Of a DNA stretch of 64,000 bases, positions 28,472-64,000 are shown piece after piece. Source of the DNA: an uncultured Candidatus Saccharibacteria bacterium (GTDB lineage: Bacteria > Patescibacteriota > Dojkabacteria > SC72); assembly GCA_964618765.1 (NCBI GenBank), contig CAZUDZ010000002.1:66129-130128 (forward strand). The letters run 5' to 3'. Both the position numbers and the translations under genes were made by a program. The notes beneath the pieces are model-generated. The model worked only from the letters and a program-made list of their open reading frames with translations. It did no database searches and was not told where the DNA came from. Numbering within the stretch: the first letter of the stretch is position 1; the number at the start of each line of letters is the position of its first letter.

Positions 28472-30817
28472 ATGCTAGAAGATTCCAAAGTAGAGAGAAA
28501 AGAGAAATTTAATATTTCTCTTTATCAGAAAAGCTTATTCAAAGCTCTACTATTTCTTTTGCCATTAGCTATTTTCCCCTTTCCTTGGGATTGGACCGAA
28601 GCAGCTATGTCTTTGTTAATTCTCTCTATCTCAATGATTATCTTAGGTCTAGAGGTAATTAAACTCTTTTGGGATGGTAAGTTGACCATTTTAAAGAGTA
28701 CTATGGATATAGGATTTTTCCTCCTTTTATTATCCCTACTTCTTTCAACGATATTCTCCACTGATTTTTCTACAAGCATATGGGGTATAGATGGAAGGTT
28801 GGGTGGTGGTTTAATACTTTTCATATCCGTTCTCTTTGTTGCAATATCTTCTAGAACATTCATAGAGGGAGAGGAGGATGTTCATTCTTTGATAATGGCT
28901 TTTCTAATTGGCTTTTTTATAAATAACTTTTTAAGTTTACTCTCATTCTTTGGGGTTAATATCTGGGGTTTAATTCCTGCTTATCGTGATTTATACCAAG
29001 CAGGATTACCACTTTTAAGATCGTCAAAGATTCACTTGCTAATTAATTTTGTAAATATCATTGCATGTATAGGGATTATTGGTGAGTATTTAATAAACAG
29101 TAAGAGAAAATTAGAATACATTCTCTCTTTTCTGTTTGGGTTACTCTCCGTAATTAATATTTGGTTTTACTCCATTAATCAAAAAATCACCCTTACACTC
29201 TTTCTCTTGGTAGGTGTAGCTATTCTTTTGTTAATTGCTTTGAAAGGAATTAAGCTAGAGAAAGAAACTTCTAAACAAATATTTCTTTTCTCTTTAATAT
29301 GTGTTTTCTTAATAGCGATACCCGTTATCTTTCTACAGATACCTAGAGTAAGAGATGCTATTTTAACAAAGGAGTTTGAAATGATATCCGAAGTATCCCT
29401 AGGTTTTGATATCTCTTGGATAATAACGGGATCTGTAATAGTAAGCGGTTTTGTAGGAGGACTCCTAGGATTTGGTCCTGCAACTTACTCAATTGTATAC
29501 CATATGTTTAAGCCGTATGATCTTGGATTACTAATGCTAGGAGATGCAACTTTCCACACAGGTACAAATGAAGTCTTAACAAAAGTAGCAAGTGGAGGAC
29601 TGCTGTGGTTTCTCGTTTGGCTTTTCATAGGATATTTGATTGTAAAAAGCTTTGTTTCTGATCTTAAAATAGGAAAAGATTCCTTAAAAAAAGTAAATGG
29701 ATGGAGAATCTTGATAGTAGATGTAGTTATTTTAACAATATACCTTTCCTCTTTCCTGCTCTCCTACTCTGTCTTAGTAATTTTTCTTCTGTTACTATTT
29801 GTATCTTTAAGATCAGTGTTGATATATGACTTAAAGAAACTAACCAACGAGAAATTCATTCTCAAGTTCTGGGCATTAAATGTGTCATCAACTCCTCAAG
29901 TAGGAAGCTCTTTGTATAGTTTTAATATATTTCTAACAGTTCTTGTATCTATTATCACCCTGGGTCTTTTTGGGATGTGGACCTTTAAAGGGATTGGGAG
30001 TATACAGGCAGTAAGGGCAGAAGCCTATTTAGCAAGGGAAAACCAAAAGTACAATGTTAATACAGAATTAGTTCCTACTATAGAGGAAAGGGAGGAAGCA
30101 ATTTCTACATTAGATAAACTGTACACTTCTGCTTTAAGTTTTGACAGGAATAACCCTTTGTATAACAGGAAAAAGGCTCTAATGCTATTGGAGAAGATAG
30201 GTGTGGTTGCTGAACAGTTCTCTTCTGTTGATGAAGAAGATACGGAACAGGTAGATCAATTAGTCTCTGCTGTTACAGCATTAAAGAGTGAAGCTATAGA
30301 GTACTCACGGAAAAGTACAGATTTAGCTCCTTCTGTTTATGCCAATTGGTTAACCAGAACAACAATATATACAGGCTTGGTGGGAATAGGATTCAATGAG
30401 CATATTTCAGATGCACAATCTTCCTTAGAGAAAGCCATAACTTTAAATCCTTTAAATTACCAACTCTATTACAGTATGGCACAGGTATATATAGTCAAAG
30501 GTGATCAAGATAGTGCCTTGAAGCTACTAACAAAGGTTTTAGAGATAAACCCTCAGCACATTCCATCTATACTCCTTATCGCAGATTTAAACAAAGAGAA
30601 AGGAAATATGGATATTTATGTTTCCTATCTACAAGCGGCACAGCAAATTTTAGAGAAAGAGGAAGCTACGGATACTGAAATCTATGATGAAATAATTAAA
30701 ACCTTAGGGGAATTAGATCTTGAAGAATTGGGGTTAGATAAGGAACCAGATACTAATTTAGGAGATGAAAAAGAAATAGAATCAAAGCAGGAGAAGAAGA
30801 ATCTCATTACTGATTAG
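28472..30817 (+). CDS. Polytopic membrane protein, O-antigen ligase/polymerase (Wzy_C)-like, with C-terminal TPR repeats
   Basis: At least 10 predicted TM helices over about 520 aa, then soluble TPR-like repeats (YYSMAQVYIVKGDQDSALKLLTKVLEINP); 781 aa; the enzymatic family call is tentative. Confidence 0.45.
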   Translation: MLEDSKVERKEKFNISLYQKSLFKALLFLLPLAIFPFPWDWTEAAMSLLILSISMIILGLEVIKLFWDGKLTILKSTMDIGFFLLLLSLLLSTIFSTDFSTSIWGIDGRLGGGLILFISVLFVAISSRTFIEGEEDVHSLIMAFLIGFFINNFLSLLSFFGVNIWGLIPAYRDLYQAGLPLLRSSKIHLLINFVNIIACIGIIGEYLINSKRKLEYILSFLFGLLSVINIWFYSINQKITLTLFLLVGVAILLLIALKGIKLEKETSKQIFLFSLICVFLIAIPVIFLQIPRVRDAILTKEFEMISEVSLGFDISWIITGSVIVSGFVGGLLGFGPATYSIVYHMFKPYDLGLLMLGDATFHTGTNEVLTKVASGGLLWFLVWLFIGYLIVKSFVSDLKIGKDSLKKVNGWRILIVDVVILTIYLSSFLLSYSVLVIFLLLLFVSLRSVLIYDLKKLTNEKFILKFWALNVSSTPQVGSSLYSFNIFLTVLVSIITLGLFGMWTFKGIGSIQAVRAEAYLARENQKYNVNTELVPTIEEREEAISTLDKLYTSALSFDRNNPLYNRKKALMLLEKIGVVAEQFSSVDEEDTEQVDQLVSAVTALKSEAIEYSRKSTDLAPSVYANWLTRTTIYTGLVGIGFNEHISDAQSSLEKAITLNPLNYQLYYSMAQVYIVKGDQDSALKLLTKVLEINPQHIPSILLIADLNKEKGNMDIYVSYLQAAQQILEKEEATDTEIYDEIIKTLGELDLEELGLDKEPDTNLGDEKEIESKQEKKNLITD

Positions 30818-31535
30818 TTTGTTTCAAATAGTATGCTCTTCCTCTGAACATACAGGCTGCATTAACTATTAAGTCTTCTCCCCAAAATTTTTTTAAACAG
30901 AAACAAATACTTTCTAAGGTAGATCCAGTTGTAATTACATCATCGATGATAGTGATACTTCTATATGAAGATATATTAAAATTACTATTAACAATAAAAT
31001 CTTTGTATGAGAGAGCCTTCCTTTCATCTTTGTCTTTTAAAGATTGATGCCCATAACTATTTCTTCGCTTTAAAATGTCTTCTGAAAACGGGATATTTAA
31101 TCTGTTAGCAAGAGTTTTTGAAACCCCTAATGTTTGATTAAATCCCCTTTCCCTCAGTCTGTTTAAAGAAATCGGCACGTTAGTTAAAATACTACCTTCT
31201 AAAACTGATGGGAAGGAAGAGTTCGAGATGTTCTCAATGAAAAACTCAGAAAGGGTGTCTGCAAGATCGTATACATAATTGTATTTATATCTCTTTAATA
31301 GATCTGCTGTAAGAGAATTATATTCCCAACACACAAAGACATGATCTAAAGCAGAGATTTTCTTTAATTCTTTATACTCCTTATGTGTTGTGTAATTTGA
31401 AGAGAGTCTTCTACAGCCGTAGCATTCGGGAAGAGTTCTTTTGAAAAGCTTTTTACACCTTTCACACAGGTAGCTTCCCTTTCTAGAGCATATGCTACAA
31501 GTTTTGGGGAAAACAATATCTAGGATATTTTGCAT
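30807..31535 (-). CDS. comF: ComF family protein (double zinc ribbon plus phosphoribosyltransferase domain)
   Basis: N-terminal CSICSRKGSYLCERCKK...CYGC; PRTase motif ITIIDDVITTGSTL. Confidence 0.7.
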   Translation of the reverse strand: MQNILDIVFPKTCSICSRKGSYLCERCKKLFKRTLPECYGCRRLSSNYTTHKEYKELKKISALDHVFVCWEYNSLTADLLKRYKYNYVYDLADTLSEFFIENISNSSFPSVLEGSILTNVPISLNRLRERGFNQTLGVSKTLANRLNIPFSEDILKRRNSYGHQSLKDKDERKALSYKDFIVNSNFNISSYRSITIIDDVITTGSTLESICFCLKKFWGEDLIVNAACMFRGRAYYLKQTNQ

Positions 31536-41490: not shown

Positions 41491-41496
41491 TTGAGC

Positions 41497-43092
41497 ATGA
41501 AATTAAGCTTTAGAAAAGATTTACACATCGCAACACTTAAGTCCGAGTCTTCTTGGAACAAGTTCAAGCTTCAAGCACTGTTGCAAAACTGTGAAAGCAA
41601 ACAACCCTCTATCAATGCATACCTTGGAGCAAGGTATAGTAGGTCTGCTGATTCCGTGTTGGATATTGCATCGGAAATAGTAGAGAACAATACTGATGCA
41701 GCAGAAAGGTTAGAAAAGATATTTTCTGGATATGGACACAAGTCTGTGGGAGATATGGCAGAGCTTTTTGTTTGTTTGGAGAATATTCCTATGTATACCG
41801 CTATGAAAGTCTTCTACATGACACCAGTTATCTCAGGACAAGAAAGATCTACAAGGTATCAGAACTTTCAAGATCCTAACTTTGTGAAAATCCCGAAAGA
41901 AGTATGTGATGATTATGAAGTAAGCAGAGAATATGAAAGGATAATGTTAAAAGAGATGAAAGATTACAGAGAGTTGTTAGGGACTACCAAAGATGCTCTT
42001 AAAAAGCATTTTAGGATAAATGAAGAAAGTCCCCAGGAGCTGTCTGCTCTGAAGGCTAGGTCATTTGACGTTGCTAGGTATCTTCTGCCATATGGTCTTA
42101 GTACAAGTGCAGCTTACCTCACCTCTGCAAGGAGTTGGTCAGATTTAATTAGTTTTATGTGTGCTAGTGACACGGTAGTTGAAAATGAGATATCTGAAAT
42201 GCTACTTAATCTACTAGGAGAATCTAAACTGGATGCGAGGGGATATATTAGAGAGGCAGATGGATTAATTAGACATACGGATGCAAACTGTTGTAGAAAA
42301 GCATCCACAGAGAAGATATTGCAGTATTTGAGAGAAGATATCTCTTACGAGCAAATAACTGATATCCCTGAGAATGAGAGTGATGCAGTTGGGATAGCAT
42401 ACTCTCCTGATTGTATGGAATCACTAATCTCTCACTATGAGTATTTAATAAATCCTTTAGGATCTAAAAAGGAATTCGAGTTTTCAGAAGAGGACCAAGA
42501 GAAGCTAGGAGAGATGATCTTTGAAACTCATGATCATCACAATCAGCTAGGAAATATTGGTCAATCTGGCGCTATAAAGATAGAAGGATTCGCAAGTTTA
42601 GGAACATTAAAAGATTTAAATAGGCATAGAAGTATGGAAAGATTCATACCTCTTTTACATGACGAAATAGATATGAACAGCGAATTAGATAGAAGGGATG
42701 ATCAATGTTTCTACCTATGTAACCATCTAGAAATAAATTCGCTCTCCAAGCTTAAGAAAGAGTATATAAAAAGATTAGTGGAAACATATCAACTGATTAG
42801 AGAGTGGAGAAAATTAGCAAAAAACCATCTCTCCAAGGAGGTATGTGATGAATTTACTAAGTATTTACTTCCTCATGCACATGCGACAAAGTATATTTTT
42901 TACGGTTCTTTTGATGATTTACAGTATGTGATTAATTTAAGGACAAGAAATGGTGGGCATATTGCATACAGGGTTCTAGTATATGAATGGTTAAAGAATC
43001 TTAATTACTTGGATCCGATATGGAGACCTCTTTTAAGGAAGATTGTAGAGCCTAAGGTCGATGACAAACATCAGTTTGTAGATAGAAGCTAA
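41497..43092 (+). CDS. thyX: Putative FAD-dependent thymidylate synthase ThyX, tandem-duplicated (two ThyX-like halves with complementary motif loss); start moved to ATG 41497 (the listed ORF begins at a TTG)
   Basis: Half 1: GHKSVGDMAE...FYMTPVISGQERSTRY aligns to the ThyX block GHETPFEH...FRHRIASYNELSGRY, keeping S-x-RY but losing RHR. Half 2: HDHHNQLG...LNRHRSMERF keeps RHR but lacks S-x-RY. Lies between glyA and dcd. Confidence 0.5.
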   Translation: MKLSFRKDLHIATLKSESSWNKFKLQALLQNCESKQPSINAYLGARYSRSADSVLDIASEIVENNTDAAERLEKIFSGYGHKSVGDMAELFVCLENIPMYTAMKVFYMTPVISGQERSTRYQNFQDPNFVKIPKEVCDDYEVSREYERIMLKEMKDYRELLGTTKDALKKHFRINEESPQELSALKARSFDVARYLLPYGLSTSAAYLTSARSWSDLISFMCASDTVVENEISEMLLNLLGESKLDARGYIREADGLIRHTDANCCRKASTEKILQYLREDISYEQITDIPENESDAVGIAYSPDCMESLISHYEYLINPLGSKKEFEFSEEDQEKLGEMIFETHDHHNQLGNIGQSGAIKIEGFASLGTLKDLNRHRSMERFIPLLHDEIDMNSELDRRDDQCFYLCNHLEINSLSKLKKEYIKRLVETYQLIREWRKLAKNHLSKEVCDEFTKYLLPHAHATKYIFYGSFDDLQYVINLRTRNGGHIAYRVLVYEWLKNLNYLDPIWRPLLRKIVEPKVDDKHQFVDRS

Positions 43093-43748: not shown

Positions 43749-45098
43749 CTACATCAGAGGAGGTGCAGGAGGAATATCTTCTGTGTTCCCATCGTCTTGT
43801 TGCTGATTGATGTTTCCTGGGACAGGAGGGTAAGGATTTGGTTCTACCGTAGGAGTACTCCCCATATTTAGATCTGGGAAATTATTTTGCTGATTAGGAG
43901 GTATTATTCCTGGAGCGTCTGTAGGAGGAGAAGTTCTTTGCATTTGACCAATCTCCCTGTCTATACTTCCTTGAGATTCATAATCGGGCTGTACAATCGA
44001 AGGATTATTTCGCATGTATATTTCAGGGTTCTCAGGAGGAGTTTGAGGGGGTTCTTGTGGAATATTTTGTGCTACTGGTGGATTACCCATTTGCTCGGAA
44101 GGAGGCATTGCCCCTGTGTTTAGATTAATACTAGGATTAAATGGTGTATCTTGGATACCTTGTGACTCTGGAGGAGTAGCACCTCCCTCTCTCTTAAGAA
44201 TTTCTTGCAAATCATCCTCTTGTGTCTCTGGAGCAATGTTTGCTACGGGTTCTCTCTGTTGTGGTGGTACTTGAGGAACATTTTGTTCAAAAGGAAATTG
44301 TGAAGGCTGTGGAGGTTGAATGTCTCGATAGGTTCCTGTTTCTACAGGAGCAGATTGTGGGACTTCCTTATTAACCATATTTCTCAACGTTGGTTCCTCT
44401 TTAGAGGCTTCCTGAGGAGAAGATTCTGACTCTTTCGGTTCTTTTGTGGGCTTCTTTTTTGTTAGTAGTATAACAATAATGCTTATTAGTAATATTACTG
44501 AAGCACCTATTAGAATATATGGAAGATATTCTGTAATGTTGTCTAGACTAAAGCCAGATTCAGATGTTGTTGTTATTGCTTGAGTATCTTGAGGAGTTAC
44601 TAGTAAATCATCTTCTACTGGGGTACCCTCCTGTTGTCCTTCTTCTAATGCTACAGCGGTATCCTGCTCGGGGACTCCAATATTAACGACTTCTCCCACG
44701 CTAAGTTCTCCTAGATCTAAAGCCTCATTTTCTAGAAGTTTAAAAGTGTATGATTCCTCAGTAGATGTGAATGAAATAATGGCAAGAACTCCATTGAGAG
44801 CTGTAGGTTTTTCTAACTCACAATTTATTACTGCAATATTGTCATCTTTCCCATCATCAGTAGAGAAAGTAGAACATTCCACATCTCCCTTTGAGATATT
44901 TACCACAGTAACATCACTTGAGAATTCTATGGGAAGGACGATGTTCTCAGCTAGATCAGCTTCTGTGTCTATGTTTATCTTTATTTCTTGTACATCTTGC
45001 TTAGTGTTATCAACCATTTCTATATTTACTGCTGCAAAGGCAGAGAATGGAATTAAAAGCATAAGAAAAGAAACCAAGATGGGATATGTTTTTTTCAT
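43749..45098 (-). CDS. Surface/membrane protein: signal peptide, Ig-like N-terminal region, one TM, long Pro/Gln-rich low-complexity C-terminal region
   Basis: N-terminal hydrophobic signal LVSFLMLLIPFSAFA; TM YILIGASVILLISIIVILLT; C-terminal 230 aa are rich in P/Q/N (PPQPSQFPFEQNVPQVPPQQ...). Confidence 0.5.
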   Translation of the reverse strand: MKKTYPILVSFLMLLIPFSAFAAVNIEMVDNTKQDVQEIKINIDTEADLAENIVLPIEFSSDVTVVNISKGDVECSTFSTDDGKDDNIAVINCELEKPTALNGVLAIISFTSTEESYTFKLLENEALDLGELSVGEVVNIGVPEQDTAVALEEGQQEGTPVEDDLLVTPQDTQAITTTSESGFSLDNITEYLPYILIGASVILLISIIVILLTKKKPTKEPKESESSPQEASKEEPTLRNMVNKEVPQSAPVETGTYRDIQPPQPSQFPFEQNVPQVPPQQREPVANIAPETQEDDLQEILKREGGATPPESQGIQDTPFNPSINLNTGAMPPSEQMGNPPVAQNIPQEPPQTPPENPEIYMRNNPSIVQPDYESQGSIDREIGQMQRTSPPTDAPGIIPPNQQNNFPDLNMGSTPTVEPNPYPPVPGNINQQQDDGNTEDIPPAPPLM

Positions 45099-45229: not shown

Positions 45230-46495
45230 ATGAACTATCCAAATTACAATTCAGCATTGCCAAGTCAAGATATTAATGCTGTTATAGATGAAAACTTAAA
45301 TGAAGTGTTAGAGTTGGAAAAGAAACTTATCTCTTCGAACACCCCTGAAGGACTTAAGGAAGAGGCTATGAGAGGAATCCAGAGGCTTAAGAGAATGTTT
45401 AGGATGGGAGGGTATAGTTCTGAGTTTGAAACGGTTAATAAGTATATTGATTGGGTTACAAGAATTCCTTGGGGAGTAATAAGTAGAGATAATCTGGATA
45501 TTCAGAATACAAGGAAACTAATGGATGAGAGTCATCACGGTATGGATACCATCAAAGAGCTGATCCTTGATTATCTTGCTACTATGCAATTACAATCTAT
45601 GGGAAGCATAGAGAGAGTTAGGAGAGAGAGTATTCCTTCGCAAATTCCTTATGTTAACTCTGTAGCTTCTAGTGGCTATCAACCTAACCCGCTATCTAAT
45701 TCTAGTCAGTTTACAAATTTTGAGCTTAAGAAAGATGAGGCAGCAATACTAAAAAGTTCTTCAGCAAATGCTCCTGTATTCCTGTTTGTTGGACTTCAAG
45801 GTGTAGGTAAAACGTCTATTGCGAAATCTATTGCAAGCTCTATGGGGAGAAAGTTTGCAAGAGTTTCCTTAGGTGCAATAGGTGATGTGAGGACTCTTAG
45901 AGGGACTCCAAGATACTCAGCTGACTCAGAACCAGGTCAAATTATAAAGGCTTTGATAAGATGCGGTACTATGAATCCCGTTATTCTTCTTGATGAGATT
46001 GAGAAATCTAGTGGGGAGAAAGGTTTGTTAAGTGATGTAATGGCTGTTCTCTTAGAGATTTTAGATCCAGAACAGAACTCTAGTTTTGTAGATCATTATA
46101 TAGATTATCCAGTTAACCTCTCACAGGTCTTTTTTATTTGTACTGCAAACAACCTAGGCGGTTTATCTGCTGCACTTTTAGATAGGGTTGAAGTTATTCG
46201 CTTTACAAGTTACTCGGATCAAGAAAAAGAGGTTATTGGTAGAGAGTATATTCTTCCCAAAGTATTGGAGAACTTAAATATATCTCCTGATTATATTAAA
46301 ATAGAGGATGAAGTTTGGCCATTGATCATAAGACCAGTGGGGTTTGATGCAGGGATAAGGCAGTTAGAAAGGAATGTTACAACTATTGTAAGAAGTGCAG
46401 CGAGGATGATAGTAGAGGGAAAGCCCTTGCCAATAATTATTAATAGTGGGAACTTAACCCAATATGTACTTGCAGATCAGGGCCCTCTAAGTTAA
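45230..46495 (+). CDS. Lon-like AAA+ ATPase module without the Lon N-terminal substrate domain and without the C-terminal protease domain
   Basis: YIDWVTRIPWG, Walker A GLQGVGKTS, Walker B ILLDEIEK, LEILDPEQNSSFVDHY, sensor CTAN and AALLDRVEVIRF all align collinearly with the central part of bacterial Lon (from memory of the E. coli LonA sequence); the ORF starts after a 131-nt intergenic region and stops where the protease domain would begin. Confidence 0.75.
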   Translation: MNYPNYNSALPSQDINAVIDENLNEVLELEKKLISSNTPEGLKEEAMRGIQRLKRMFRMGGYSSEFETVNKYIDWVTRIPWGVISRDNLDIQNTRKLMDESHHGMDTIKELILDYLATMQLQSMGSIERVRRESIPSQIPYVNSVASSGYQPNPLSNSSQFTNFELKKDEAAILKSSSANAPVFLFVGLQGVGKTSIAKSIASSMGRKFARVSLGAIGDVRTLRGTPRYSADSEPGQIIKALIRCGTMNPVILLDEIEKSSGEKGLLSDVMAVLLEILDPEQNSSFVDHYIDYPVNLSQVFFICTANNLGGLSAALLDRVEVIRFTSYSDQEKEVIGREYILPKVLENLNISPDYIKIEDEVWPLIIRPVGFDAGIRQLERNVTTIVRSAARMIVEGKPLPIIINSGNLTQYVLADQGPLS

Positions 46496-46507
46496 TCCTA
46501 AGATGTC

Positions 46508-46792
46508 TTAATATCCCTTGAAAGGGTTGATTAATCTTAAAGATGAAACAGCTCTTCTTACTTGAGGGTTTGCTATTCCCTTGCTTATATCAGCCTTATA
46601 TCCTTGTTTCTCTTCTGCCTTACACAGTAGAGAGAGGTCTTCATTAACTTTTTCCTTGTTTAAACTGTTTGTATCTACGGACTCTGTTACAAGATAATCT
46701 GAGATATTTATCTCATTGGTAGGGTAAGCATCTTTCTGTTTGTCTTTAGTATTGTCTTGTTTGTTCATCTTCTTTTGACGGATAGCTTTCAA
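46508..46792 (-). CDS. Small lysine-rich hypothetical protein (possible last gene of the VirB4-like operon); start uncertain
   Basis: Open frame downstream of and overlapping the 3' end of the VirB4-like gene by 47 nt; no recognisable motif. Confidence 0.25.
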   Translation of the reverse strand: MKAIRQKKMNKQDNTKDKQKDAYPTNEINISDYLVTESVDTNSLNKEKVNEDLSLLCKAEEKQGYKADISKGIANPQVRRAVSSLRLINPFKGY

Positions 46793-49211
46793 TTAATCCT
46801 TGTGGGGTTAAGTGTCCCCTTCCTCTTTGTATATCTTCTCTTGATTTTACAGTCTGTCCAGATACTGTTCCCTCCCTTACTTCATCTAATATCGTCCTTT
46901 CTTTCAGAAACTTCTTTGGATTTAGTTCTCTCTCTTGTTGGTTTAATCTTTCCTGTAGTTCCCTTTGATACTCTTCTCTTTCGCTACTTATCGTATTTTT
47001 TTGTCCTTTTGTTCTTTCTATGGCCTCTTTAATAATGAGATCTTGTCTCTCCATCGTTTTCCCGTCTCTCATAGGTTTCTGTTCTGTTGGAGGATCAAAT
47101 ATCTCAGAAAGTTCAGCAACTGTTCTTGTATCTGTTTGACCTTCTCTTTCCTTCATTTTTGCTAGGTCTCTTGGGTCTGAAGTTATTAGTTCGTGTTCTG
47201 CAACGCTAGAGAGTACCTGTATTCCTACATGGTTTGATCCTGCAAAGAATAGTCCTTGGCCTTGATCGCAGTTAAGTAAGAAGTTCTTCTCTCCGTCTGA
47301 GAGGTTGAATACTTCTTGTAATTTCTCTACAGCTGTAGGGCTTTGCATCATTAGCATTTGTATTGAAGAGTTGGAGATTATTGCTTTGCCCATATCTGTG
47401 TTTAAGAAATCTGCTACATCTTGCGTGATGGTAGAAAGTCCTAAATAGTACTTTCTGGCTCTCTTAGCAATAGAGTACATAAAGTTGGCAGAATCCTCTG
47501 ACTGCATCATATACCAAGCTTCATCTACTATTAGTAATCTTCTCTTTTTCTCCTTCCTGATTTTAGTCCAAATGAAATCAAGCATTAGGTACATCGCTAG
47601 AGGTTTTAGCTCCTCTTGTAGATCTCTTACACTGAAAACTGTAAACGGATTGTTTATTTCGAAGTTACTGGCTTCGTTGAATACACCTGCTCCACTTCCG
47701 ATTATGAACTTTTCTAATCTTCTTGCTAGACCATGGGCTTCTGTTTCGGCCATTCCCTTAAGTACTTTGTAAAGATCTTCTAGCATAGGAGGTGTTTTAG
47801 TTTGTGTATTAGGATCAAATGTAATACCTTTCTCTCTATATGTGAGAATTAATGCTCTATCTAGTATAGAGTTCTCTATGTTTGTCAGTTTACCTAACAT
47901 AACCTTAAAGAATCCTTGAAGAGCCAGTAGCTTCATTCTTAATTCGTCATCGCCCTCTTCTGTTACACCAGAAAGTTCGAATGGATTCATCTTGTTTCCT
48001 TTGTCCTGTGAGAACGATATGTATGCACCATTAACGGCATTAGCGAGGTCTTCGTATTCTCTCTCTGGATCTATTATTAATATCTCTGTTCCAAGCATTA
48101 AGCTTCTTACGGCTTCAAGTTTTACAAAGTAGCTCTTTCCAGCACCTGATTTAGCAAATATCACGGCATTTGCATTTTCCAGTTCAAATCTGTCAAAGAT
48201 TACAAGACTTCTATTATGTAAATTAAGCCCATACATTATCCCATGATCCATTGTTAACTCAGAGGTTACAAATGGAAAGGTTGTAGCAAGAGAGGTAGTA
48301 TCCATGTTTCTTGTTATGTACAGATTGTCCAGTCCTAAAGGTTGTGAACTTACAAAGCCTTGTTCCTGTTGAAGCGTTGCAGGCTTCGCAGTTACATTAA
48401 TAGCGGCAAGTGTTGAGGTTACATTTCTAGAGATCTTCTCTAGAGCTTCTTGGTCTTTTGCGTAGAGTGTGATGTACATAGAAAAATGAAAAAACTTTTC
48501 TGTTCCTTCCGCGATAGAGTCTTGGAGTTGTTGAGCGTCTGAGAGTGCTACCTTTAAAGAAGGGTCTACTACTTTTCTTTCTTCCATCTGGGAGTAGAGG
48601 GATGCTTCCATTTCTCCTATCTTTTTCTTTAACTTCTCTAGAATGGTTTTGTTGTCTACGGGATAATAGAAGGAGCTAATTCTGAGAGAATGTTCAAAGT
48701 TTATTATTGGAGAAAGCCAGTTTGGCCCTACGAATCTTGGATATCCACTTACAAAAAGAGTTTTAAAGAAGTAAGATCCCATTTGGATATTATTGAAGTC
48801 TACCTCTAGATCTATTGGTGCGATGATGTCCTGAATGGACATATCTGGTGGTATTAGGTCATGGGTTTGCTCTCTCTCTGTATCAGTATCTAAAACAACC
48901 TCTTCTTCCTTTTGTTCCTTTTTTGCTTTCTTCTCCTTCTTCTTTCCAACAAGCCCAGCTATCTTATCAAGGGTTTTTATTATGAAGTTCTTTTTTTTCT
49001 TTTTATTTTCTGTAGACTCGGGGTCATTGTATCTATTAAATTTTTCTTTTTCATTGTTTTTCTCCTCTGCCTCTTTTTTAATATTAAGAACTTCCTGTTG
49101 AAGATCGGTGTATTTCTCTCCAGGAGTTTTTAGTTTCTCTTGTTGTTTTGTTAACATCTCCGATGTCTTTGTTTGAAAACTTCGATTGTAGTTGTTATTT
49201 GTTTCGTCCAT
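46746..49211 (-). CDS. VirB4/TrbE/PrgJ-like type IV secretion ATPase with Lys/Glu-rich N-terminal extension
   Basis: Walker A IFAKSGAGKSYF followed by IIDPEREY; Walker B LLIVDEAWYM (DEAW); N-terminal domain FFKTLFVSGYPRFVGPNWLSPIIN resembles the VirB4 N-domain; the start is TAATG-coupled to the upstream gene stop. Confidence 0.6.
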   Translation of the reverse strand: MDETNNNYNRSFQTKTSEMLTKQQEKLKTPGEKYTDLQQEVLNIKKEAEEKNNEKEKFNRYNDPESTENKKKKKNFIIKTLDKIAGLVGKKKEKKAKKEQKEEEVVLDTDTEREQTHDLIPPDMSIQDIIAPIDLEVDFNNIQMGSYFFKTLFVSGYPRFVGPNWLSPIINFEHSLRISSFYYPVDNKTILEKLKKKIGEMEASLYSQMEERKVVDPSLKVALSDAQQLQDSIAEGTEKFFHFSMYITLYAKDQEALEKISRNVTSTLAAINVTAKPATLQQEQGFVSSQPLGLDNLYITRNMDTTSLATTFPFVTSELTMDHGIMYGLNLHNRSLVIFDRFELENANAVIFAKSGAGKSYFVKLEAVRSLMLGTEILIIDPEREYEDLANAVNGAYISFSQDKGNKMNPFELSGVTEEGDDELRMKLLALQGFFKVMLGKLTNIENSILDRALILTYREKGITFDPNTQTKTPPMLEDLYKVLKGMAETEAHGLARRLEKFIIGSGAGVFNEASNFEINNPFTVFSVRDLQEELKPLAMYLMLDFIWTKIRKEKKRRLLIVDEAWYMMQSEDSANFMYSIAKRARKYYLGLSTITQDVADFLNTDMGKAIISNSSIQMLMMQSPTAVEKLQEVFNLSDGEKNFLLNCDQGQGLFFAGSNHVGIQVLSSVAEHELITSDPRDLAKMKEREGQTDTRTVAELSEIFDPPTEQKPMRDGKTMERQDLIIKEAIERTKGQKNTISSEREEYQRELQERLNQQERELNPKKFLKERTILDEVREGTVSGQTVKSREDIQRGRGHLTPQGLIESYPSKEDEQTRQY

Positions 49212-49849
49212 TACTCTTCGTCAGGATTATATATGGTATAAAATTCAGAAAGGAGTTCTTTAGTAGTTAATTGATGTCCAAAGAGACCCATTCTACTTAA
49301 CTGTTTTAATACATGGTCTCTTTTTGGGTAGAGAAATATTTTAGCCTTTTCGAGAAGTTGTTCTTCTTTCATTCCTTTTGCTTTTTCTTCTTCTTCTTTT
49401 GTTTTACGGACATCAAGAATGTTTGACCCTGGAATCGGGGCTCCTGGACTGTAGGGGATTACTATAAAGAAGTTTTTATCCAAAACATCATTTTGTACAA
49501 TTAATTTCTGTACAAAATGGGTATATATATTTAGTTGTTTTCTTAATCCTTCGCTAATCTCTGCTCTGTCGAGATTTGCTTTCAGATAGTCTAAATAGTT
49601 AGAGATATCGATTCTCTTTGTTCTGATTAGTATTTGGATTCGAAAATTTAAAGAATTGAGAAAACCAGCAAAAGCATATATTTTATTATCTTGTTCATAC
49701 TCTGCCAGAAGATCAAAGTTAATGGAGGAAGTTTGTATAACCATAGTGACACTTCCCTTACTAGTTATTATTAAATCATCTAAGATATCTTTAATCCCAA
49801 GATGATCTTGTGTTGATTCTGTTGCTCTTGCTCTAGTTTTCTTGTCCAC
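49211..49849 (-). CDS. Hypothetical soluble protein encoded between the PrgI-like and VirB4-like genes (T4SS-associated by context)
   Basis: Tight coupling: 1-nt gap to the upstream gene, and its stop overlaps the VirB4-like start; no recognised motif. Confidence 0.4.
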   Translation of the reverse strand: MDKKTRARATESTQDHLGIKDILDDLIITSKGSVTMVIQTSSINFDLLAEYEQDNKIYAFAGFLNSLNFRIQILIRTKRIDISNYLDYLKANLDRAEISEGLRKQLNIYTHFVQKLIVQNDVLDKNFFIVIPYSPGAPIPGSNILDVRKTKEEEEKAKGMKEEQLLEKAKIFLYPKRDHVLKQLSRMGLFGHQLTTKELLSEFYTIYNPDEE

Positions 49850-49850
49850 T

Positions 49851-50684
49851 TTAAATGCTATTAATTTTAATTGGTGCTTTGTCTTCCTTATTCATAATTT
49901 CTAATTGAACCTCCGGGAACCTATACACAGGATGTTGAAATTCTAACATATATGTTCCTGGATCCCACAGTTTGTTTGTAAGGAAGTATCCACTCTCTCC
50001 TGTTTTATTTGCATACAGAATTTTTCTTTCAGAATTTTTAAGATAAGTTATGACATTGGGTATTGGTTTTAAATCTTTTGTAGAAAGCCAAATATTTATA
50101 TTTCCTGGTAATCTGTCCTGGCTTTTAATCTGAAATTGGTAGTTAGAAATATTTTCCTTCGTTATGATCAGGAAATTAGGATCTACAGGAGATGGAGTAA
50201 CCAGTTCAGGATCCACAGTAAGTTGCTCATCTAGCATATCACTTACCTCATCCTCTGCGAGAATATCTTTCTTGATGGGGAGAGCCTCTCCGATTATCTT
50301 GTTCTTTTTAACCTTTACATCCGTAGGAATCAGTCGACCTTCTTGGTCAGGTTTAACATTAGGTTTAATTCCTTTGTTCTCCATATCCTTTGTCAACCAA
50401 ACTCTTTGTGTGGGAGCTGTAATTGCACTTATGTAATTTTTAATAAAGACATCAGCATCTTGGTCATTAATGGGGACTAGTCCTAAGAATATTCCAGCAC
50501 TAGCAGAGAAGATGAAAACAGGTATTCCTAAAATCGCAGGGAGTACATTGCTGACAACTAGATAAATCATTACTCCTCCAAAACCAAGCCCTATCGCTAG
50601 GTAGGCGAATTCCTTAAGTGTAAACTTTGTAAAGAGTTTAAATTCAACATCTAATATATTTTGAGGAATGGCATGTTGTCTCAT
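49851..50684 (-). CDS. PrgI/VirB3-like membrane protein (N-terminal TM hairpin) with C-terminal extracytoplasmic domain
   Basis: N-terminal KLFTKFTLKEFAYLAIGLGFGGVMIYLVV...PVFIFSASAGIFLGLV fits the K-x-x-F-x-F-T-x-x-Q/E pre-TM pattern of PrgI/VirB3-like proteins; first gene of the operon. Confidence 0.4.
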   Translation of the reverse strand: MRQHAIPQNILDVEFKLFTKFTLKEFAYLAIGLGFGGVMIYLVVSNVLPAILGIPVFIFSASAGIFLGLVPINDQDADVFIKNYISAITAPTQRVWLTKDMENKGIKPNVKPDQEGRLIPTDVKVKKNKIIGEALPIKKDILAEDEVSDMLDEQLTVDPELVTPSPVDPNFLIITKENISNYQFQIKSQDRLPGNINIWLSTKDLKPIPNVITYLKNSERKILYANKTGESGYFLTNKLWDPGTYMLEFQHPVYRFPEVQLEIMNKEDKAPIKINSI

Positions 50685-50747
50685 ATATTGGCAGATTTTA
50701 CTACTTTTAGATAGTAAAGTTTACCAGAATATTGAGAAAAGTTTTAG

Positions 50748-51578
50748 ATGTCTCTTTATTTCCTTTATAATACAGCTATGCAAACAGCACAGAAAGCGTT
50801 CTTAAATCTAATTAAGTTCAGATCCGCTATGAATTTAACTCTCTCTAGGGATGATATCAAATATATATGGGGGAGAAGATTTCTGAGAAACTGGGAGACA
50901 AGCAAAGAGAAAGAACTAAGTAGGGAGATTAAAAAGATTAGAGAGAATGAAAATGAGTATGTAGCTAGAAAGATTGAGATTGTAAAGGAGCAGGTATCAA
51001 AATTGAAGGTCTTTGATTGGGTACAGTTCATTGGAATATCGGGATCGGTAGCCGCGGGGTTTGCCAAGGAAGATGATGATATTGATGTTTTTATAGTAGT
51101 TAAAAATGGAACGGTATGGTTATATAGGGTTATTATAATTTTAAGGAATCTTTTCCATAATAAAATTCGTGCTAAGAGGCATAAGAATGTAAAAAATAAG
51201 TTATGTCTTAATCTCATATGCGAGGAGAGGGGAGTACAGTTTCCCAATGATATCTTTAATTTTCATGAACTAATCTTTCTTAAACCTCTATATAACGGAA
51301 AGTATAAAAATTACATCTTCTCACAGAACGCATGGTTAGAGAGGGAGTATTTTGTTAAAAAAGAATTGCTTAGAACAAGAGTAGTTTCTCAAAAAGATGC
51401 ATTTCTCGTAATTAAGATAGCTAACCATCTAGCATTCATTGCTCAGTTAGTATTCATGAGTATTTCAAGACATAATCCAGAGATTGGAAGACTCAAGGAA
51501 AATTTTAAGAAAGGGAAGATAGAGTTTTTTGACCAGGATTTTAGAGAAGATAAGTTAACAAAGTTTTTCAAAAATTAA
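50748..51578 (+). CDS. Polymerase-beta-superfamily nucleotidyltransferase domain protein with about 90-aa N-terminal helical extension
   Basis: GISGSVAAGFAKEDDDIDVFIVV matches the hG[GS]x9-13-DxD nucleotidyltransferase motif at residues 95-117; 276 aa. Confidence 0.55.
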   Translation: MSLYFLYNTAMQTAQKAFLNLIKFRSAMNLTLSRDDIKYIWGRRFLRNWETSKEKELSREIKKIRENENEYVARKIEIVKEQVSKLKVFDWVQFIGISGSVAAGFAKEDDDIDVFIVVKNGTVWLYRVIIILRNLFHNKIRAKRHKNVKNKLCLNLICEERGVQFPNDIFNFHELIFLKPLYNGKYKNYIFSQNAWLEREYFVKKELLRTRVVSQKDAFLVIKIANHLAFIAQLVFMSISRHNPEIGRLKENFKKGKIEFFDQDFREDKLTKFFKN

Positions 51579-54513: not shown

Positions 54514-55068
54514 CTAATTGATATTCAAGGTCATATCAAACATCTCTGAGAATTGTATTCCAGAGAGATTTTCTAATGCAAGAAAAAGAATAATTTTATC
54601 TCCAGATGAAACGGGGATTTTTTGCTCGTATGTGTTTCCCTTGTAATCTTGAAGCCTGTATGTTTCTTCATTAATTATTAAATATATTTCAGACTTAGTA
54701 TTGCTGAGAGTTTGTCCCCAAACGGAAATAACCTTCTCTTCTGCTGTTTTATTCTCTATTTCCAATATCGGTTTTGAGTATGAGTCCGCACCTCGCTTCC
54801 CTAGTCTTGCAGAGTATGCGTATTTAGAATCTTCAGTCTGATTAAGAGTTTCTTCGGAGAAAACTTCATGTTTTCCTCCGACTAGCCTAACGATGGTATC
54901 ATTCTGGGTCGTCACTCCCAAGATATCCAGTTTTTTAAGTTGTTTGGTAATTGGAGTTAGATTCATCACAGTTATTATGGGGAGGATGAAGAAAAGGGCT
55001 AGTAAGCCTAAAGCAAACGGTTCTAGTATTTGGGAAAATACCTTTTTAGTTTTATTTGTCTCCTTCAT
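54514..55068 (-). CDS. Hypothetical membrane-anchored protein (N-terminal TM, extracytoplasmic domain)
   Basis: ATG start; TM FALGLLALFFILPIITVM; 2-nt gap to the upstream gene. Confidence 0.35.
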   Translation of the reverse strand: MKETNKTKKVFSQILEPFALGLLALFFILPIITVMNLTPITKQLKKLDILGVTTQNDTIVRLVGGKHEVFSEETLNQTEDSKYAYSARLGKRGADSYSKPILEIENKTAEEKVISVWGQTLSNTKSEIYLIINEETYRLQDYKGNTYEQKIPVSSGDKIILFLALENLSGIQFSEMFDMTLNIN

Positions 55069-55070
55069 TG

Positions 55071-55619
55071 TTAGTAATAGTTGCTTTCCTTAGGATATAT
55101 CTTATCAGTTTCCAATTCAAATGTCTTTATGGTTCCCCAAATAGAGAGGAGTGCAATTACACCTGATGTAATTCCTATCCACTCATATGTTTGTCCCTGT
55201 AGGGTATGGATTATCGTAATGATGGAGCTTATTGTTACAAAGCTAGACCATATAAATATTTGTAAAAAAGAGGTGTCCTTTTTTGTTATCCATTTTAAGA
55301 TGTTTAGTTTTGTTACTTTCGCTATAGTTCTAGGATTTTGCAATGTAGTTTGGTAAATAGATGTTTTTGCAATGAAATATATGGCTGGTACTGCAAGGAA
55401 TAGTAACATAGTTAGGTTAGAAACAGAGTTAACAAAGAGGGTAGTACTATTGTCTGTAAAGGAGATTTGTATTGATACAAGACCATTCATTTCGTTTTGT
55501 ACGAAAAATTCTAGATCATATATTGCTGTAGGAATTATGATACCTAAAAACTTCCCAGCGATCATCAAAATAGCTGGAGTTAGGGATATTTTAAGCGCTC
55601 TTTTTAGCAGTTTTGACAT
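55071..55619 (-). CDS. Hypothetical polytopic membrane protein (about 4 TM)
   Basis: Four hydrophobic segments; overlaps the rpsT stop by 29 nt, so apparently co-transcribed with rpsT. Confidence 0.35.
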   Translation of the reverse strand: MSKLLKRALKISLTPAILMIAGKFLGIIIPTAIYDLEFFVQNEMNGLVSIQISFTDNSTTLFVNSVSNLTMLLFLAVPAIYFIAKTSIYQTTLQNPRTIAKVTKLNILKWITKKDTSFLQIFIWSSFVTISSIITIIHTLQGQTYEWIGITSGVIALLSIWGTIKTFELETDKIYPKESNYY

Positions 55620-62671: not shown

Positions 62672-64000
62672 TTAATCTAATACGGCCTTTATCCTTTTTA
62701 TTCCTGCTCCTACGTTCTCTTGTTTTACAATTTTTAATTTTGTTAATTCCTTAGTGTTTTGTACGTGAGGGCCATTACATATCTCTACGGAGAAGGGATT
62801 ATCTTTTGGACCAATGTAGTACAGCTTGACTATGTCCCCGTATTTTTCTACAAAGGATGCAGTAGAAGAATACTTATCTATGATTTTAAGAGCCTCCTCT
62901 TTAGACTTGTCCTCATGTGATATTTCTAGACCTTTATCGATTACATCATTGACAATATCTTCTACTTGTCTAATTTGCTCTGGTGTTAGTTTAGATTTGT
63001 TTGGATAGTCCAACCTTAATCTTTCTGAAGTAATATTACTACCCATTTGATATACATGTTCTCCAAGTACCTTGCGTAGTGCAACAAGTAGTAGGTGTGT
63101 AGCGGTATGATATTTGATTGATATCTCTGAAGTGTCTGCTAGTCCTCCCTTGAACAGTCCTTTAGATGCACCTCTGGATTTCTCTTGATGTTTTTGTTGT
63201 GCTTTAAAAAAGCTTTCCCTATCTTGAAGTGTAATGTTTTTTTCTTGCAAAATCTCCTCTGTTACTTCGAGGGGTAATCCGTATGTTTCGTAAAGCTTGA
63301 ATGCCATATCTCCGTCTACCAAACTTTCGCTAGTCAGTAACCGTTCTAGTTCTTTAAGGCCATTTTCTAAGGTCTTACTAAATTTTATTTCTTCTTTTTC
63401 TATGATTTTCAAGATCTCATTTTTCTTCTTTTCTAAATCAGGATATATTTCAGAGAACTGTTCTATTGCAACTTTTGCCACCTCTTTTGTAAAGAGGTTC
63501 TCTATGCCCAGTTTCCTTCCATGTCTTACTGCCCTTCTAATTAATCTTCTAAGGACATATCCTTGCTGATTGCTTCCTGGTAGCACTCCATCCATAATGA
63601 TCCAAGTAGCAGCCTTTATATGATCTACTATGATTCTTTCCGATTTAACATTACTGACTTTTCCTAGCTCTTGGACTTTTTGTAGTATTGGTTTGTAAAT
63701 ATCTATCTCGTATATACTATCTACTCTTTGTATAAGGGCAGCTATCCTTTCTAGTCCTCCTCCAAAATCTACATTATGTCTGCCAAGTGGAGTAAAAGAG
63801 TTTCCTTTCTTGAAATACTCCATGAAGACATTGTTGCCGATTTCTACATATTTGCCACAATTACAATTAATGTTGCAATCACTACAACATTCCTCTTTAC
63901 CTGTATCGTAGAAAATTTCAGAATCTGGACCACACGGTCCACCTGACTCTAGTCCCCACCAATTTTCTTTCTTTCCATACTTTTGGATTCTTTCTTTTGC
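62672..64000 (-). CDS. alaS: Alanine--tRNA ligase, 5'-truncated by window edge (C-terminal portion including the editing domain present)
   Basis: The frame stays open to nt 64000, encoding W...GPCGPDSEIFYD (class II AlaRS catalytic motif); downstream HTATHLL editing-domain zinc motif; the listed ORF start at 63823 is internal. Confidence 0.85.
   Translation of the reverse strand, partial: AKERIQKYGKKENWWGLESGGPCGPDSEIFYDTGKEECCSDCNINCNCGKYVEIGNNVFMEYFKKGNSFTPLGRHNVDFGGGLERIAALIQRVDSIYEIDIYKPILQKVQELGKVSNVKSERIIVDHIKAATWIIMDGVLPGSNQQGYVLRRLIRRAVRHGRKLGIENLFTKEVAKVAIEQFSEIYPDLEKKKNEILKIIEKEEIKFSKTLENGLKELERLLTSESLVDGDMAFKLYETYGLPLEVTEEILQEKNITLQDRESFFKAQQKHQEKSRGASKGLFKGGLADTSEISIKYHTATHLLLVALRKVLGEHVYQMGSNITSERLRLDYPNKSKLTPEQIRQVEDIVNDVIDKGLEISHEDKSKEEALKIIDKYSSTASFVEKYGDIVKLYYIGPKDNPFSVEICNGPHVQNTKELTKLKIVKQENVGAGIKRIKAVLD

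Follow-up and report, generated by a model that had tools for sequence, protein, structure and literature searches.

The 64-kb window of contig CAZUDZ010000002.1 analysed here, from an uncultured member of the Dojkabacteria, carries a compact group of four genes centred on a VirB4-type ATPase. We conclude that this locus is very probably the cytoplasmic-membrane ATPase core of a chromosomal type IV secretion system (T4SS) of the Patescibacteria type, derived from the conjugation machinery of the monoderm MPF-FATA group. It combines an intact VirB4, a TrsD encoded directly beside virB4 and an associated PrgI, and it lies in a Patescibacteria housekeeping context that lacks a relaxase and a coupling protein. 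The system is of a known kind; what sets this locus apart is only the isolation of the trio and its lineage-specific additions. Coordinates given below are positions in the 64-kb window, and residue numbers refer to the individual proteins.

The four co-directional open reading frames (ORFs) all lie on the minus strand (46508–50684). The TAA stop codon of prgI is followed, after a gap of 1 nucleotide (nt), by the GTG start of the trsD gene for a 212-amino-acid (aa) protein, and the trsD stop and virB4 start overlap in the sequence TAATG. An earlier reading of the bare sequence, referred to here as the original prediction, had described these four minus-strand genes and their tight junctions, and all of them were found at the positions it gave. 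For the fourth ORF, a TTG at 46792 would yield an alternative product of 94 aa; the ATG at 46768, which gives a 23-nt overlap with virB4, is favoured by public gene calls and by the orthologues. A sequence scan of positions 46200–51000 returned 13 promoter-like sites against 12.9 expected and 8 terminator-like sites against 2.9 expected.

The 821-aa protein is a VirB4 ATPase of the CD1110 family with intact Walker A and Walker B motifs. Among the NCBIfam models, it matches NF045971 (conju_CD1110, VirB4-like conjugal transfer ATPase) with 388.6 bits (cut-off 325), the VirB4 model of mycoplasma integrative and conjugative elements with 279 bits and F-type TraC with 178 bits. The Pfam matches comprise PF19044 P-loop_TraG (4e-27, 95 bits) and CagE_TrbE_VirB (22.6 bits, cut-off 21), the N-terminal domain matching both CagE_TrbE_VirB and TraC_F_IV, and the only solved relative by sequence is PDB 4ag5, the C-terminal domain of a VirB4 (3.3e-48). 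The hallmarks on which the VirB4 assignment was originally based, GAGKS at residue 356, DPEREY at residue 381 and DEAW at residue 563, are located as claimed. The competing identity named at that time, a P-loop translocase of the HerA/FtsK type with no relation to type IV secretion, has a negligible probability. It could draw on weak Pfam matches to DUF87/HerA (31 bits) and AAA_10 (38.7 bits), but the VirB4-family models are far ahead of these, the N-terminal domain is of VirB4 type, the adjoining genes encode PrgI and TrsD, and the true FtsK of the genome, with 4TM, alpha and gamma domains, is encoded elsewhere (12607–14871) as the only FtsK-like protein in the window. The comparison of scores rules this identity out.

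The VirB4 core (approximately residues 120–680), with a column identity of 67–99% among orthologues, is flanked by two lineage-specific extensions (residues 1–110 and 681–821). The N-terminal extension contains 25 Lys and 17 Glu (isoelectric point (pI) 9.1), counts that bear out its original description as a Lys/Glu-rich stretch. Orthologues possess it as well, but it is barely conserved (9–39% column identity), and it is missing from a 621-aa homologue from Pontibacillus, whose alignment begins at approximately residue 124 of the window protein. At the other end, all VirB4 models stop at residues 648–667; the C-terminal extension is 33–52% conserved among orthologues and, in the junction alignment, ends in the motif HLTPQGxIESYP.

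The 212-aa protein, previously thought to belong to no recognisable family, proved to be TrsD/TraD-like and the counterpart of the VirB4 N-terminal region. Its matches among full-length VirB4 proteins fall at their very N-terminus, and its predicted model appears to resemble the structure of TrwK, which was recovered by fold comparison only. The core of the 821-aa protein aligns to the 752-position CD1110 model only from approximately position 170 onward, which is why we regard it as a VirB4 without the part that TrsD would supply. In a tblastn search of plasmids, the closest match to the 212-aa protein was a 274-aa gene on a Pontibacillus megaplasmid, which supports the interpretation as a split VirB4. 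A comparison of the TrsD profile with the Dojkabacteria VirB4 profile by hhalign detected no similarity (probability 0.04%), a weak negative given the shallow alignments (Neff 1.6). The possibility that TrsD is a paralogue of an N-domain retained in VirB4 was rejected on this weak null result, and because the two proteins show no similarity in that comparison TrsD is regarded as the missing N-terminal piece and not as a duplicate. As far as sequence comparison goes, TrsD supplies the N-terminal VirB4 subdomain that is absent from the 821-aa protein.

The PrgI/VirB3-type hairpin at the N-terminus of the 277-aa protein, also anticipated in the original prediction, is supported by a Pfam match to PF12666 PrgI (35 bits, cut-off 27, residues 6–95) and by two membrane helices. 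In the AlphaFold model, helices at residues 23–44, 50–69 and 77–89 are followed by a disordered, charged linker (129–165) and a β-sandwich (approximately 170–277) predicted with a pLDDT of 86–91. The gene sits two genes upstream of virB4, full-length orthologues are 55–77% identical, and residues M1 to F26 as well as a PTQRVW motif after the hairpin are nearly invariant among them. The C-terminal domain had been described as extracytoplasmic; the topology instead makes a cytoplasmic location more likely. PrgI has only one hydrophobic region (residues 25–74), and no third hydrophobic segment was detected, the maximum 19-residue hydropathy past residue 90 being 0.49. With a two-helix hairpin and no third membrane segment, the β-sandwich would lie on the same, cytoplasmic side as the N-terminus. 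Lys and Arg residues are clustered on both outer flanks of the hairpin and not in its loop, and both ends of VirB3 proteins are cytoplasmic (PMC12857230).

Canonical VirB3/PrgI proteins measure 10–15 kDa and have short cytoplasmic ends, whereas the window protein (277 aa, approximately 31 kDa) carries a C-terminal linker and β-sandwich of 190 aa and is for this reason considered a long-form variant. By profile search, 1,629 matches were obtained among 1.84 billion cluster representatives, 1,107 of them at E ≤ 1e-10, and the best 150 of the 1,629 were mostly 260–780 aa long with two matched stretches. All eight long-form matches that were checked combine an N-terminal PrgI domain with a long Pro/Gln/Ser-rich or coiled-coil linker, and seven of the eight carry a C-terminal CarboxypepD_reg domain; the linker, disordered or coiled-coil, varies widely in length (approximately 100–600 aa). 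The predicted long-form architecture is widespread and not restricted to this locus.

The small ORF after virB4 is intact in 62 related loci, was encountered in Dojkabacteria loci only and encodes a protein that lacks membrane segments. Among its copies, YLVT, DL..L.KAE.K and, at the C-terminus, RA.SAL.L.NPFKG[Y/V] recur as conserved motifs, with the NPFKG[Y/V] ending invariant, and the 86-aa protein has no match to a Pfam or NCBIfam family. A word-indexed homology search with it gave only 7 matches, and tblastn on the retrieved loci proved much more productive. The label of a small basic protein, given originally, does not fit the window copy, which with a pI of 7.8 is not notably basic, the family median being 9.3. 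Relative to virB4, the ORF occupies the +1 frame in 62 of 63 loci, and in nearly all loci its ATG falls within the last 8–71 nt of virB4. A programmed frameshift joining VirB4 to the small ORF was considered and rejected: no slippery motif is conserved and the ATG lies inside the end of virB4, which makes ordinary translational coupling the simpler reading. Term searches of T4SS papers turned up no mention of the long-form PrgI, of the HLTPQGxIESYP tail of VirB4 or of the NPFKG protein; the long-form PrgI, the NPFKG protein and the Dojkabacteria-specific VirB4 extensions may be new, as minor points.

Table 1. Genes of the VirB4 locus and features of their products, with positions in the 64-kb window.
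Feature	Position	Strand	Basis or remark
prgI/VirB3-like gene, long form, 277 aa	49851..50684	−	PF12666, AlphaFold model, hydropathy
PrgI/VirB3 domain including membrane hairpin, residues 6–95	50400..50669	−	PF12666
PrgI C-terminal β-sandwich (predicted), CnaB / transthyretin / CarboxypepD_reg type, residues 170–277	49854..50177	−	
trsD/TraD-like gene, 212 aa, GTG start	49211..49849	−	Putative separately encoded N-terminal VirB4 subdomain
virB4 ATPase gene, 821 aa	46746..49211	−	NF045971, PF19044, CagE_TrbE_VirB, PDB 4ag5, conservation profile
VirB4 N-terminal extension, Lys/Glu-rich, low-complexity, residues 1–110	48882..49211	−	Composition, conservation
VirB4 Walker A GAGKS, residues 356–360	48132..48146	−	20-residue block 90% conserved, 72 orthologues
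VirB4 Walker B DEAW, residues 563–566	47514..47525	−	Block 90% conserved, 72 orthologues
VirB4 C-terminal extension, charged, residues 681–821	46746..47171	−	Past the end of all VirB4 models
Small conserved gene, 86 aa, ATG start	46508..46768	−	Intact in 62 related loci; public gene calls

The combination of these genes is well documented in the phylum, whose members are ultrasmall and depend on hosts. In a survey of 3,035 Patescibacteria genomes, Dojkabacteria included, 2,425 VirB4 proteins formed a monophyletic Patescibacteria clade nested in monoderm MPF-FATA, and 98% of the surveyed Patescibacteria VirB4 proteins fell inside this clade (Quiñonero-Coronel et al. 2025, PMC12102498). TrsD was the commonest partner of virB4 and PrgI/VirB3 often lay beside virB4; few relaxases were present, coupling proteins seldom showed linkage to virB4, and Dojkabacteria genomes were scored as VirB4-positive in the published dataset (PMC12102498). 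A VirB4-driven module of this sort is not new, since the relaxase-less VirB3–TrsD–VirB4 association has already been surveyed across Patescibacteria (PMC12102498), and the locus represents no new kind of system. The survey also bears on genes that may lie elsewhere: 1,948 VirB4-bearing Patescibacteria assemblies also encode VirB2-like pilins, often distant from virB4, and VirB6 was hard to detect in Microgenomatia and Gracilibacteria, which its authors attribute to extreme sequence divergence (PMC12102498).

A counterpart with functional data exists in Southlakia epibionticum, in which SEML1_0010 (PrgI), SEML1_0009 and SEML1_0008 (VirB4) are all essential by Tn-seq (Wang et al. 2023, PMC10633639). 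The likeness extends to the order of the long-form PrgI (300 aa, compared with 277 aa here), TrsD homologue (293 and 212 aa, respectively) and VirB4, to the 1-nt overlap between the gene for the TrsD homologue and virB4, and to a chromosomal location in a Patescibacteria organism without a relaxase or coupling protein nearby. However, the Southlakia trio belongs to a 14-gene cluster with VirB6-like, NTF2/VirB8-like and peptidase/lysozyme genes and six VirB2-like pilin genes, none of which has a counterpart within the 64 kb of the window. The Dojkabacteria VirB4 is approximately 200 aa longer than that of Southlakia owing to the extensions at both ends, the C-terminal part of PrgI is assigned a helical fold in Southlakia and is a predicted β-sandwich in Dojkabacteria, and the NPFKG protein after virB4 was seen in Dojkabacteria loci only.

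Among conjugative systems, the pGO1/pSK41 and pIP501 plasmids likewise encode a small membrane protein resembling VirB3, a TrsD/TraD that forms a protein of its own and is remotely similar to the N-terminus of VirB4, and the VirB4 ATPase itself, presumably in the order TrsC-TrsD-TrsE on pGO1 and TraC-TraD-TraE on pIP501. In contrast to the window locus, these systems are plasmid-borne and conjugative and include a relaxase, a coupling protein, a hydrolase and VirB8-like proteins. TrsD has been found in one MPF-FATA subclass only, that of the pGO1/pSK41 and pIP501 type (PMC12102498). The same gene order is present on the megaplasmid of Pontibacillus sp. ALD_SL1 (NZ_CP062975, 351–361 kb), where a 116-aa gene that is PrgI-like in size and position, a 274-aa TrsD-like gene and a 621-aa CD1110 VirB4 gene are joined by overlapping junctions; identity to the window proteins is 38% over 587 aa for VirB4 and 29% over 202 aa for TrsD. 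This trio is embedded in a full monoderm cluster with a pilin-like gene of the Mbov_0395 family, a 779-aa membrane protein and a 1050-aa peptidoglycan endopeptidase. It differs from the window in that the short PrgI-sized protein lacks a β-sandwich, TrsD carries an N-terminal membrane helix of its own and neither extension is present in VirB4. The Pontibacillus cluster lies on a replicon typed as non-mobilizable, beside chemotaxis and flagellar genes. More distantly, PrgI-PrgJ of pCF10 and TrwM-TrwK of R388 share the two-helix VirB3 anchor and the position of the VirB3 gene beside virB4 (PMC12857230), but PrgI of pCF10, at 117 aa, has short cytoplasmic ends, VirB4 is made as one polypeptide and the plasmids are conjugative.

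The genomic context places the module on the chromosome. Homologues and related loci go under the names of Candidatus Dojkabacteria or candidate division WS6, and two publicly available metagenome assemblies contain identical copies of the window proteins. The host is a Patescibacterium (Dojkabacteria/WS6), in agreement with the link to episymbiotic, reduced-genome bacteria drawn originally. Pfam scans covering approximately 50 ORFs across the 64 kb, with a relaxase and type IV coupling protein (T4CP) screen of ORFs ≥100 aa, identified sigma-70, DnaG, KsgA, FtsK, DnaK/GrpE/HrcA, GroEL, a ComFC-like protein, MurJ, FolD, SHMT, ThyX, dCTP deaminase, RecF, HolA, MltG, RuvX and AlaRS, and LepA is known from the precomputed annotation of the matching contig. 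The order lepA, recF, (nucleotidyltransferase), prgI, trsD, virB4, orf86, continuing with a convergent Lon-like AAA+ gene, a surface protein gene and dcd, is kept in 80 species-representative genomes, across which VirB4 is 61–83% identical. The conserved surroundings argue against a mobile element, and identical neighbours at this degree of VirB4 divergence argue for long vertical inheritance; the module is a vertically inherited chromosomal fixture at a fixed site. It is highly improbable that the genes are a decayed remnant or part of an integrated conjugative element or plasmid from a monoderm bacterium. Such an origin would fit with the best curated family being a conjugal transfer ATPase of Firmicutes mobile elements and with the nearest plasmid relative lying in a Bacillota megaplasmid T4SS cluster. 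However, the window yielded no relaxase, T4CP, integrase or repeat boundaries, its GC content is flat (0.32–0.39) and the four ORFs are intact with conserved catalytic motifs. Fixed synteny, intact ORFs and the missing relaxase and integrase essentially refute this candidate, and with housekeeping genes all around, no relaxase or coupling protein and the synteny fixed in 80 Dojkabacteria species, the original statement that this is not a classical conjugative element stands.

The Pfam scans of the window detected no relaxase, VirD4/T4CP, VirB6, VirB8, hydrolase or integrase, so that the absence of VirD4, VirB6, VirB8 and relaxase reported in the original prediction held over the full 64 kb. 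No pilin-like small ORF was recognised in the intergenic gaps, which were judged by eye (Pfam was not applied, and 154–396 and 1033–1269 are unidentified); the small ORFs in these gaps are mostly short and unconvincing, apart from those for GroES and ribosomal protein S20, identified by eye. Since channel, VirB8-like, hydrolase and pilin genes were not found nearby, a complete secretion apparatus is only assumed. The trio could alternatively be a stand-alone, repurposed membrane ATPase module that serves some other envelope process in Dojkabacteria without a secretion channel, which we consider quite unlikely. It would account for the lack of channel, pilin and hydrolase genes nearby, and it agrees with the finding of nothing T4SS-like beyond the trio and the small protein, either across the 64 kb or in the ±10 kb flanks of 80 species, with the fixed position among housekeeping genes (lepA, recF) and with the lineage-specific additions on VirB4 and PrgI. 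To our knowledge, no VirB4 works without a channel, which counts against such a module. T4SS components are, moreover, sometimes scattered, and the distant pilin genes and hard-to-detect VirB6 described above speak against it as well (PMC12102498). Because the published survey found VirB6 and VirB2 to be unlinked or undetectable in several classes, their absence near virB4 does not exclude membership of the Patescibacteria T4SS. By the same token, the term minimal apparatus, used in the original prediction, goes further than one window allows, as VirB6, VirB8-like proteins and VirB2 may be encoded far from virB4 in other Patescibacteria (PMC12102498). Two minus-strand ORFs, 55071–55619 with four membrane segments and 54514–55068 with one segment and a β-rich domain, were considered as a hidden VirB6 and VirB8; neither has a Pfam, NCBIfam or PDB-sequence match. 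The pair lies between rpsT and lepA in 49–51 of 82 loci; it is located upstream of the T4SS genes, is read in the same direction and could represent divergent envelope components.

Several other genes of the window deserve mention. The divergent gene between recF and prgI (50748–51578, plus strand), originally called a nucleotidyltransferase, does have a match to a nucleotidyltransferase family, a weak one of 22.4 bits (cut-off 21). It has tblastn matches in 55 of 82 loci, some of whose contigs are truncated, and went undetected in about one-third; on complete flanks that lack it, approximately 50–60 nt separate the end of recF from prgI, and the gene is apparently a variable insertion. On the other side, the Lon-like AAA+ protein (45230–46495, plus strand, 421 aa) has AAA and Lon_lid domains and no Pfam match to a protease domain; its gene is convergent with the T4SS operon, with 12 nt between the stop codons, and keeps this position in 75 of 82 loci. 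The adjacent surface protein (43749–45098, minus strand) consists of a signal peptide, an ectodomain of approximately 165 aa, one membrane helix and a Pro/Gln-rich tail of approximately 235 aa that is predicted to be cytoplasmic. It is fast-evolving: its place beside the module is conserved, but its sequence identity is only 30–39% in most of the 30 loci in which it was detected. Further away, a 533-aa ThyX (41491–43092, plus strand) with two Thy1 matches looks like a tandem-duplicated (fused) flavin-dependent thymidylate synthase and belongs to a thymidylate (dTMP) cluster with FolD, SHMT and dCTP deaminase. The AlaRS ORF (62672–63823, minus strand) has only 383 aa, matching the catalytic-domain model from position 212 and the SAD domain, and its N-terminal portion might be encoded by another ORF or extend past the end of the window. 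At the left end, the small plus-strand ORFs 154–396, 414–1028 and 1033–1269 have no Pfam matches; the latter two have a hydrophobic N-terminal stretch suggestive of a single membrane segment, and, by eye only, all three resemble type IV pilus alignment proteins (PilN/PilO-like).

A further alternative concerns the function and not the identity of the genes. The same proteins might form an import machine in which the VirB4 motor pulls in nucleic acid or other macromolecules of the host and thereby offsets missing nucleotide synthesis. Parallels exist in the archaeal DNA import system Ced and in ComB of Helicobacter pylori, which use a VirB4-related ATPase for uptake and have no relaxase. We regard such a role as unlikely, although it has several points in its favour. 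Relaxase and coupling protein, which are needed for DNA export, were not found in the window, a ComFC-like gene lies 15 kb away (30807–31535), and the 821-aa protein matches the Ced ATPases CedB (3.1e-16, 59 bits) and CedD (2.4e-6, 26.5 bits) weakly but genuinely. Reviews put forward uptake as a possible role, on the grounds that S. epibionticum can dispense with competence but not with the T4SS (PMC11665869); moreover, a 2026 preprint ties VirB4 and possible T4SS pili to the acquisition of host RNA in a cultivated relative. In contrast, the Ced scores are far below the cut-offs of 700 bits for CedB and 600 bits for CedD and compare with 388.6 bits for the conjugative CD1110 model. No CedA homologue was recognised, and no component set like that of H. 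pylori ComB, which requires homologues of VirB2-4 and VirB6-10, was seen. Wang et al. prefer protein export or 'an alternative capacity' (PMC10633639), and neither the direction of transport nor the cargo can be read from the sequence.

Several observations weigh against our assignment of the locus to the Patescibacteria T4SS. The NCBIfam TrsD match of the 212-aa protein reaches 37 bits where the curated cut-off is 200, its predicted structure is of low confidence (pLDDT 61), and a search of PDB sequences with the TrsD profile gave no match even at E = 10. The topology of the PrgI C-terminal domain is read solely from hydropathy and charge. Searches of the 64 kb and of the ±10 kb around the 80 loci revealed no VirB6/PrgH, VirB8-like protein, VirB1-like hydrolase or VirB2 pilin. 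Membership of the published Patescibacteria VirB4 clade is deduced from host taxonomy and gene order, the Dojkabacteria system is known from its genes alone, and even in Saccharibacteria the transported substrate is unknown (PMC11665869).

Based on the literature on R388 and monoderm T4SSs, we propose the following hypothetical mechanism for the Patescibacteria-type T4SS core encoded here, in which (i) the PrgI hairpin would be inserted in the membrane with both protein ends in the cytoplasm; (ii) the conserved N-terminus and the post-hairpin helix of PrgI would clamp the N-terminal module formed by TrsD and VirB4; (iii) TrsD and the 821-aa protein would together rebuild a complete VirB4 and form a hexamer at the membrane; (iv) ATP hydrolysis would drive the assembly and operation of a translocation channel, and probably also the assembly of a VirB2-type pilus, the subunits of both being encoded elsewhere in the genome; (v) the channel would move macromolecules at the interface with the host cell and would not serve conjugation. 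The PrgI β-sandwich, the VirB4 tails and the NPFKG protein would be lineage-specific accessories, and our guess is that they dock partners or substrates on the cytoplasmic side. A more daring version, to which we give little chance of being correct, is that in Patescibacteria these additions to the ATPase core replace the missing coupling protein. The linker-tethered β-sandwich of PrgI, the HLTPQGxIESYP tail of VirB4 and the translationally coupled NPFKG protein would then be candidate parts of a platform on which substrates dock in the cytoplasm, serving a T4SS that has no relaxase and trades macromolecules with the host cell.

The role of the Patescibacteria T4SS has been called "completely unknown", the proposals being effector delivery and the uptake of nucleotides or nucleic acids (PMC11665869; preprint). 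It is the first T4SS shown to be essential for its carrier. At least 80 Dojkabacteria species retain the trio of PrgI, TrsD and VirB4 by itself at a single chromosomal site, which points to an indispensable core of this system. The PrgI β-sandwich, the VirB4 tails and the NPFKG protein provide leads on how substrates may be recognised without a coupling protein.

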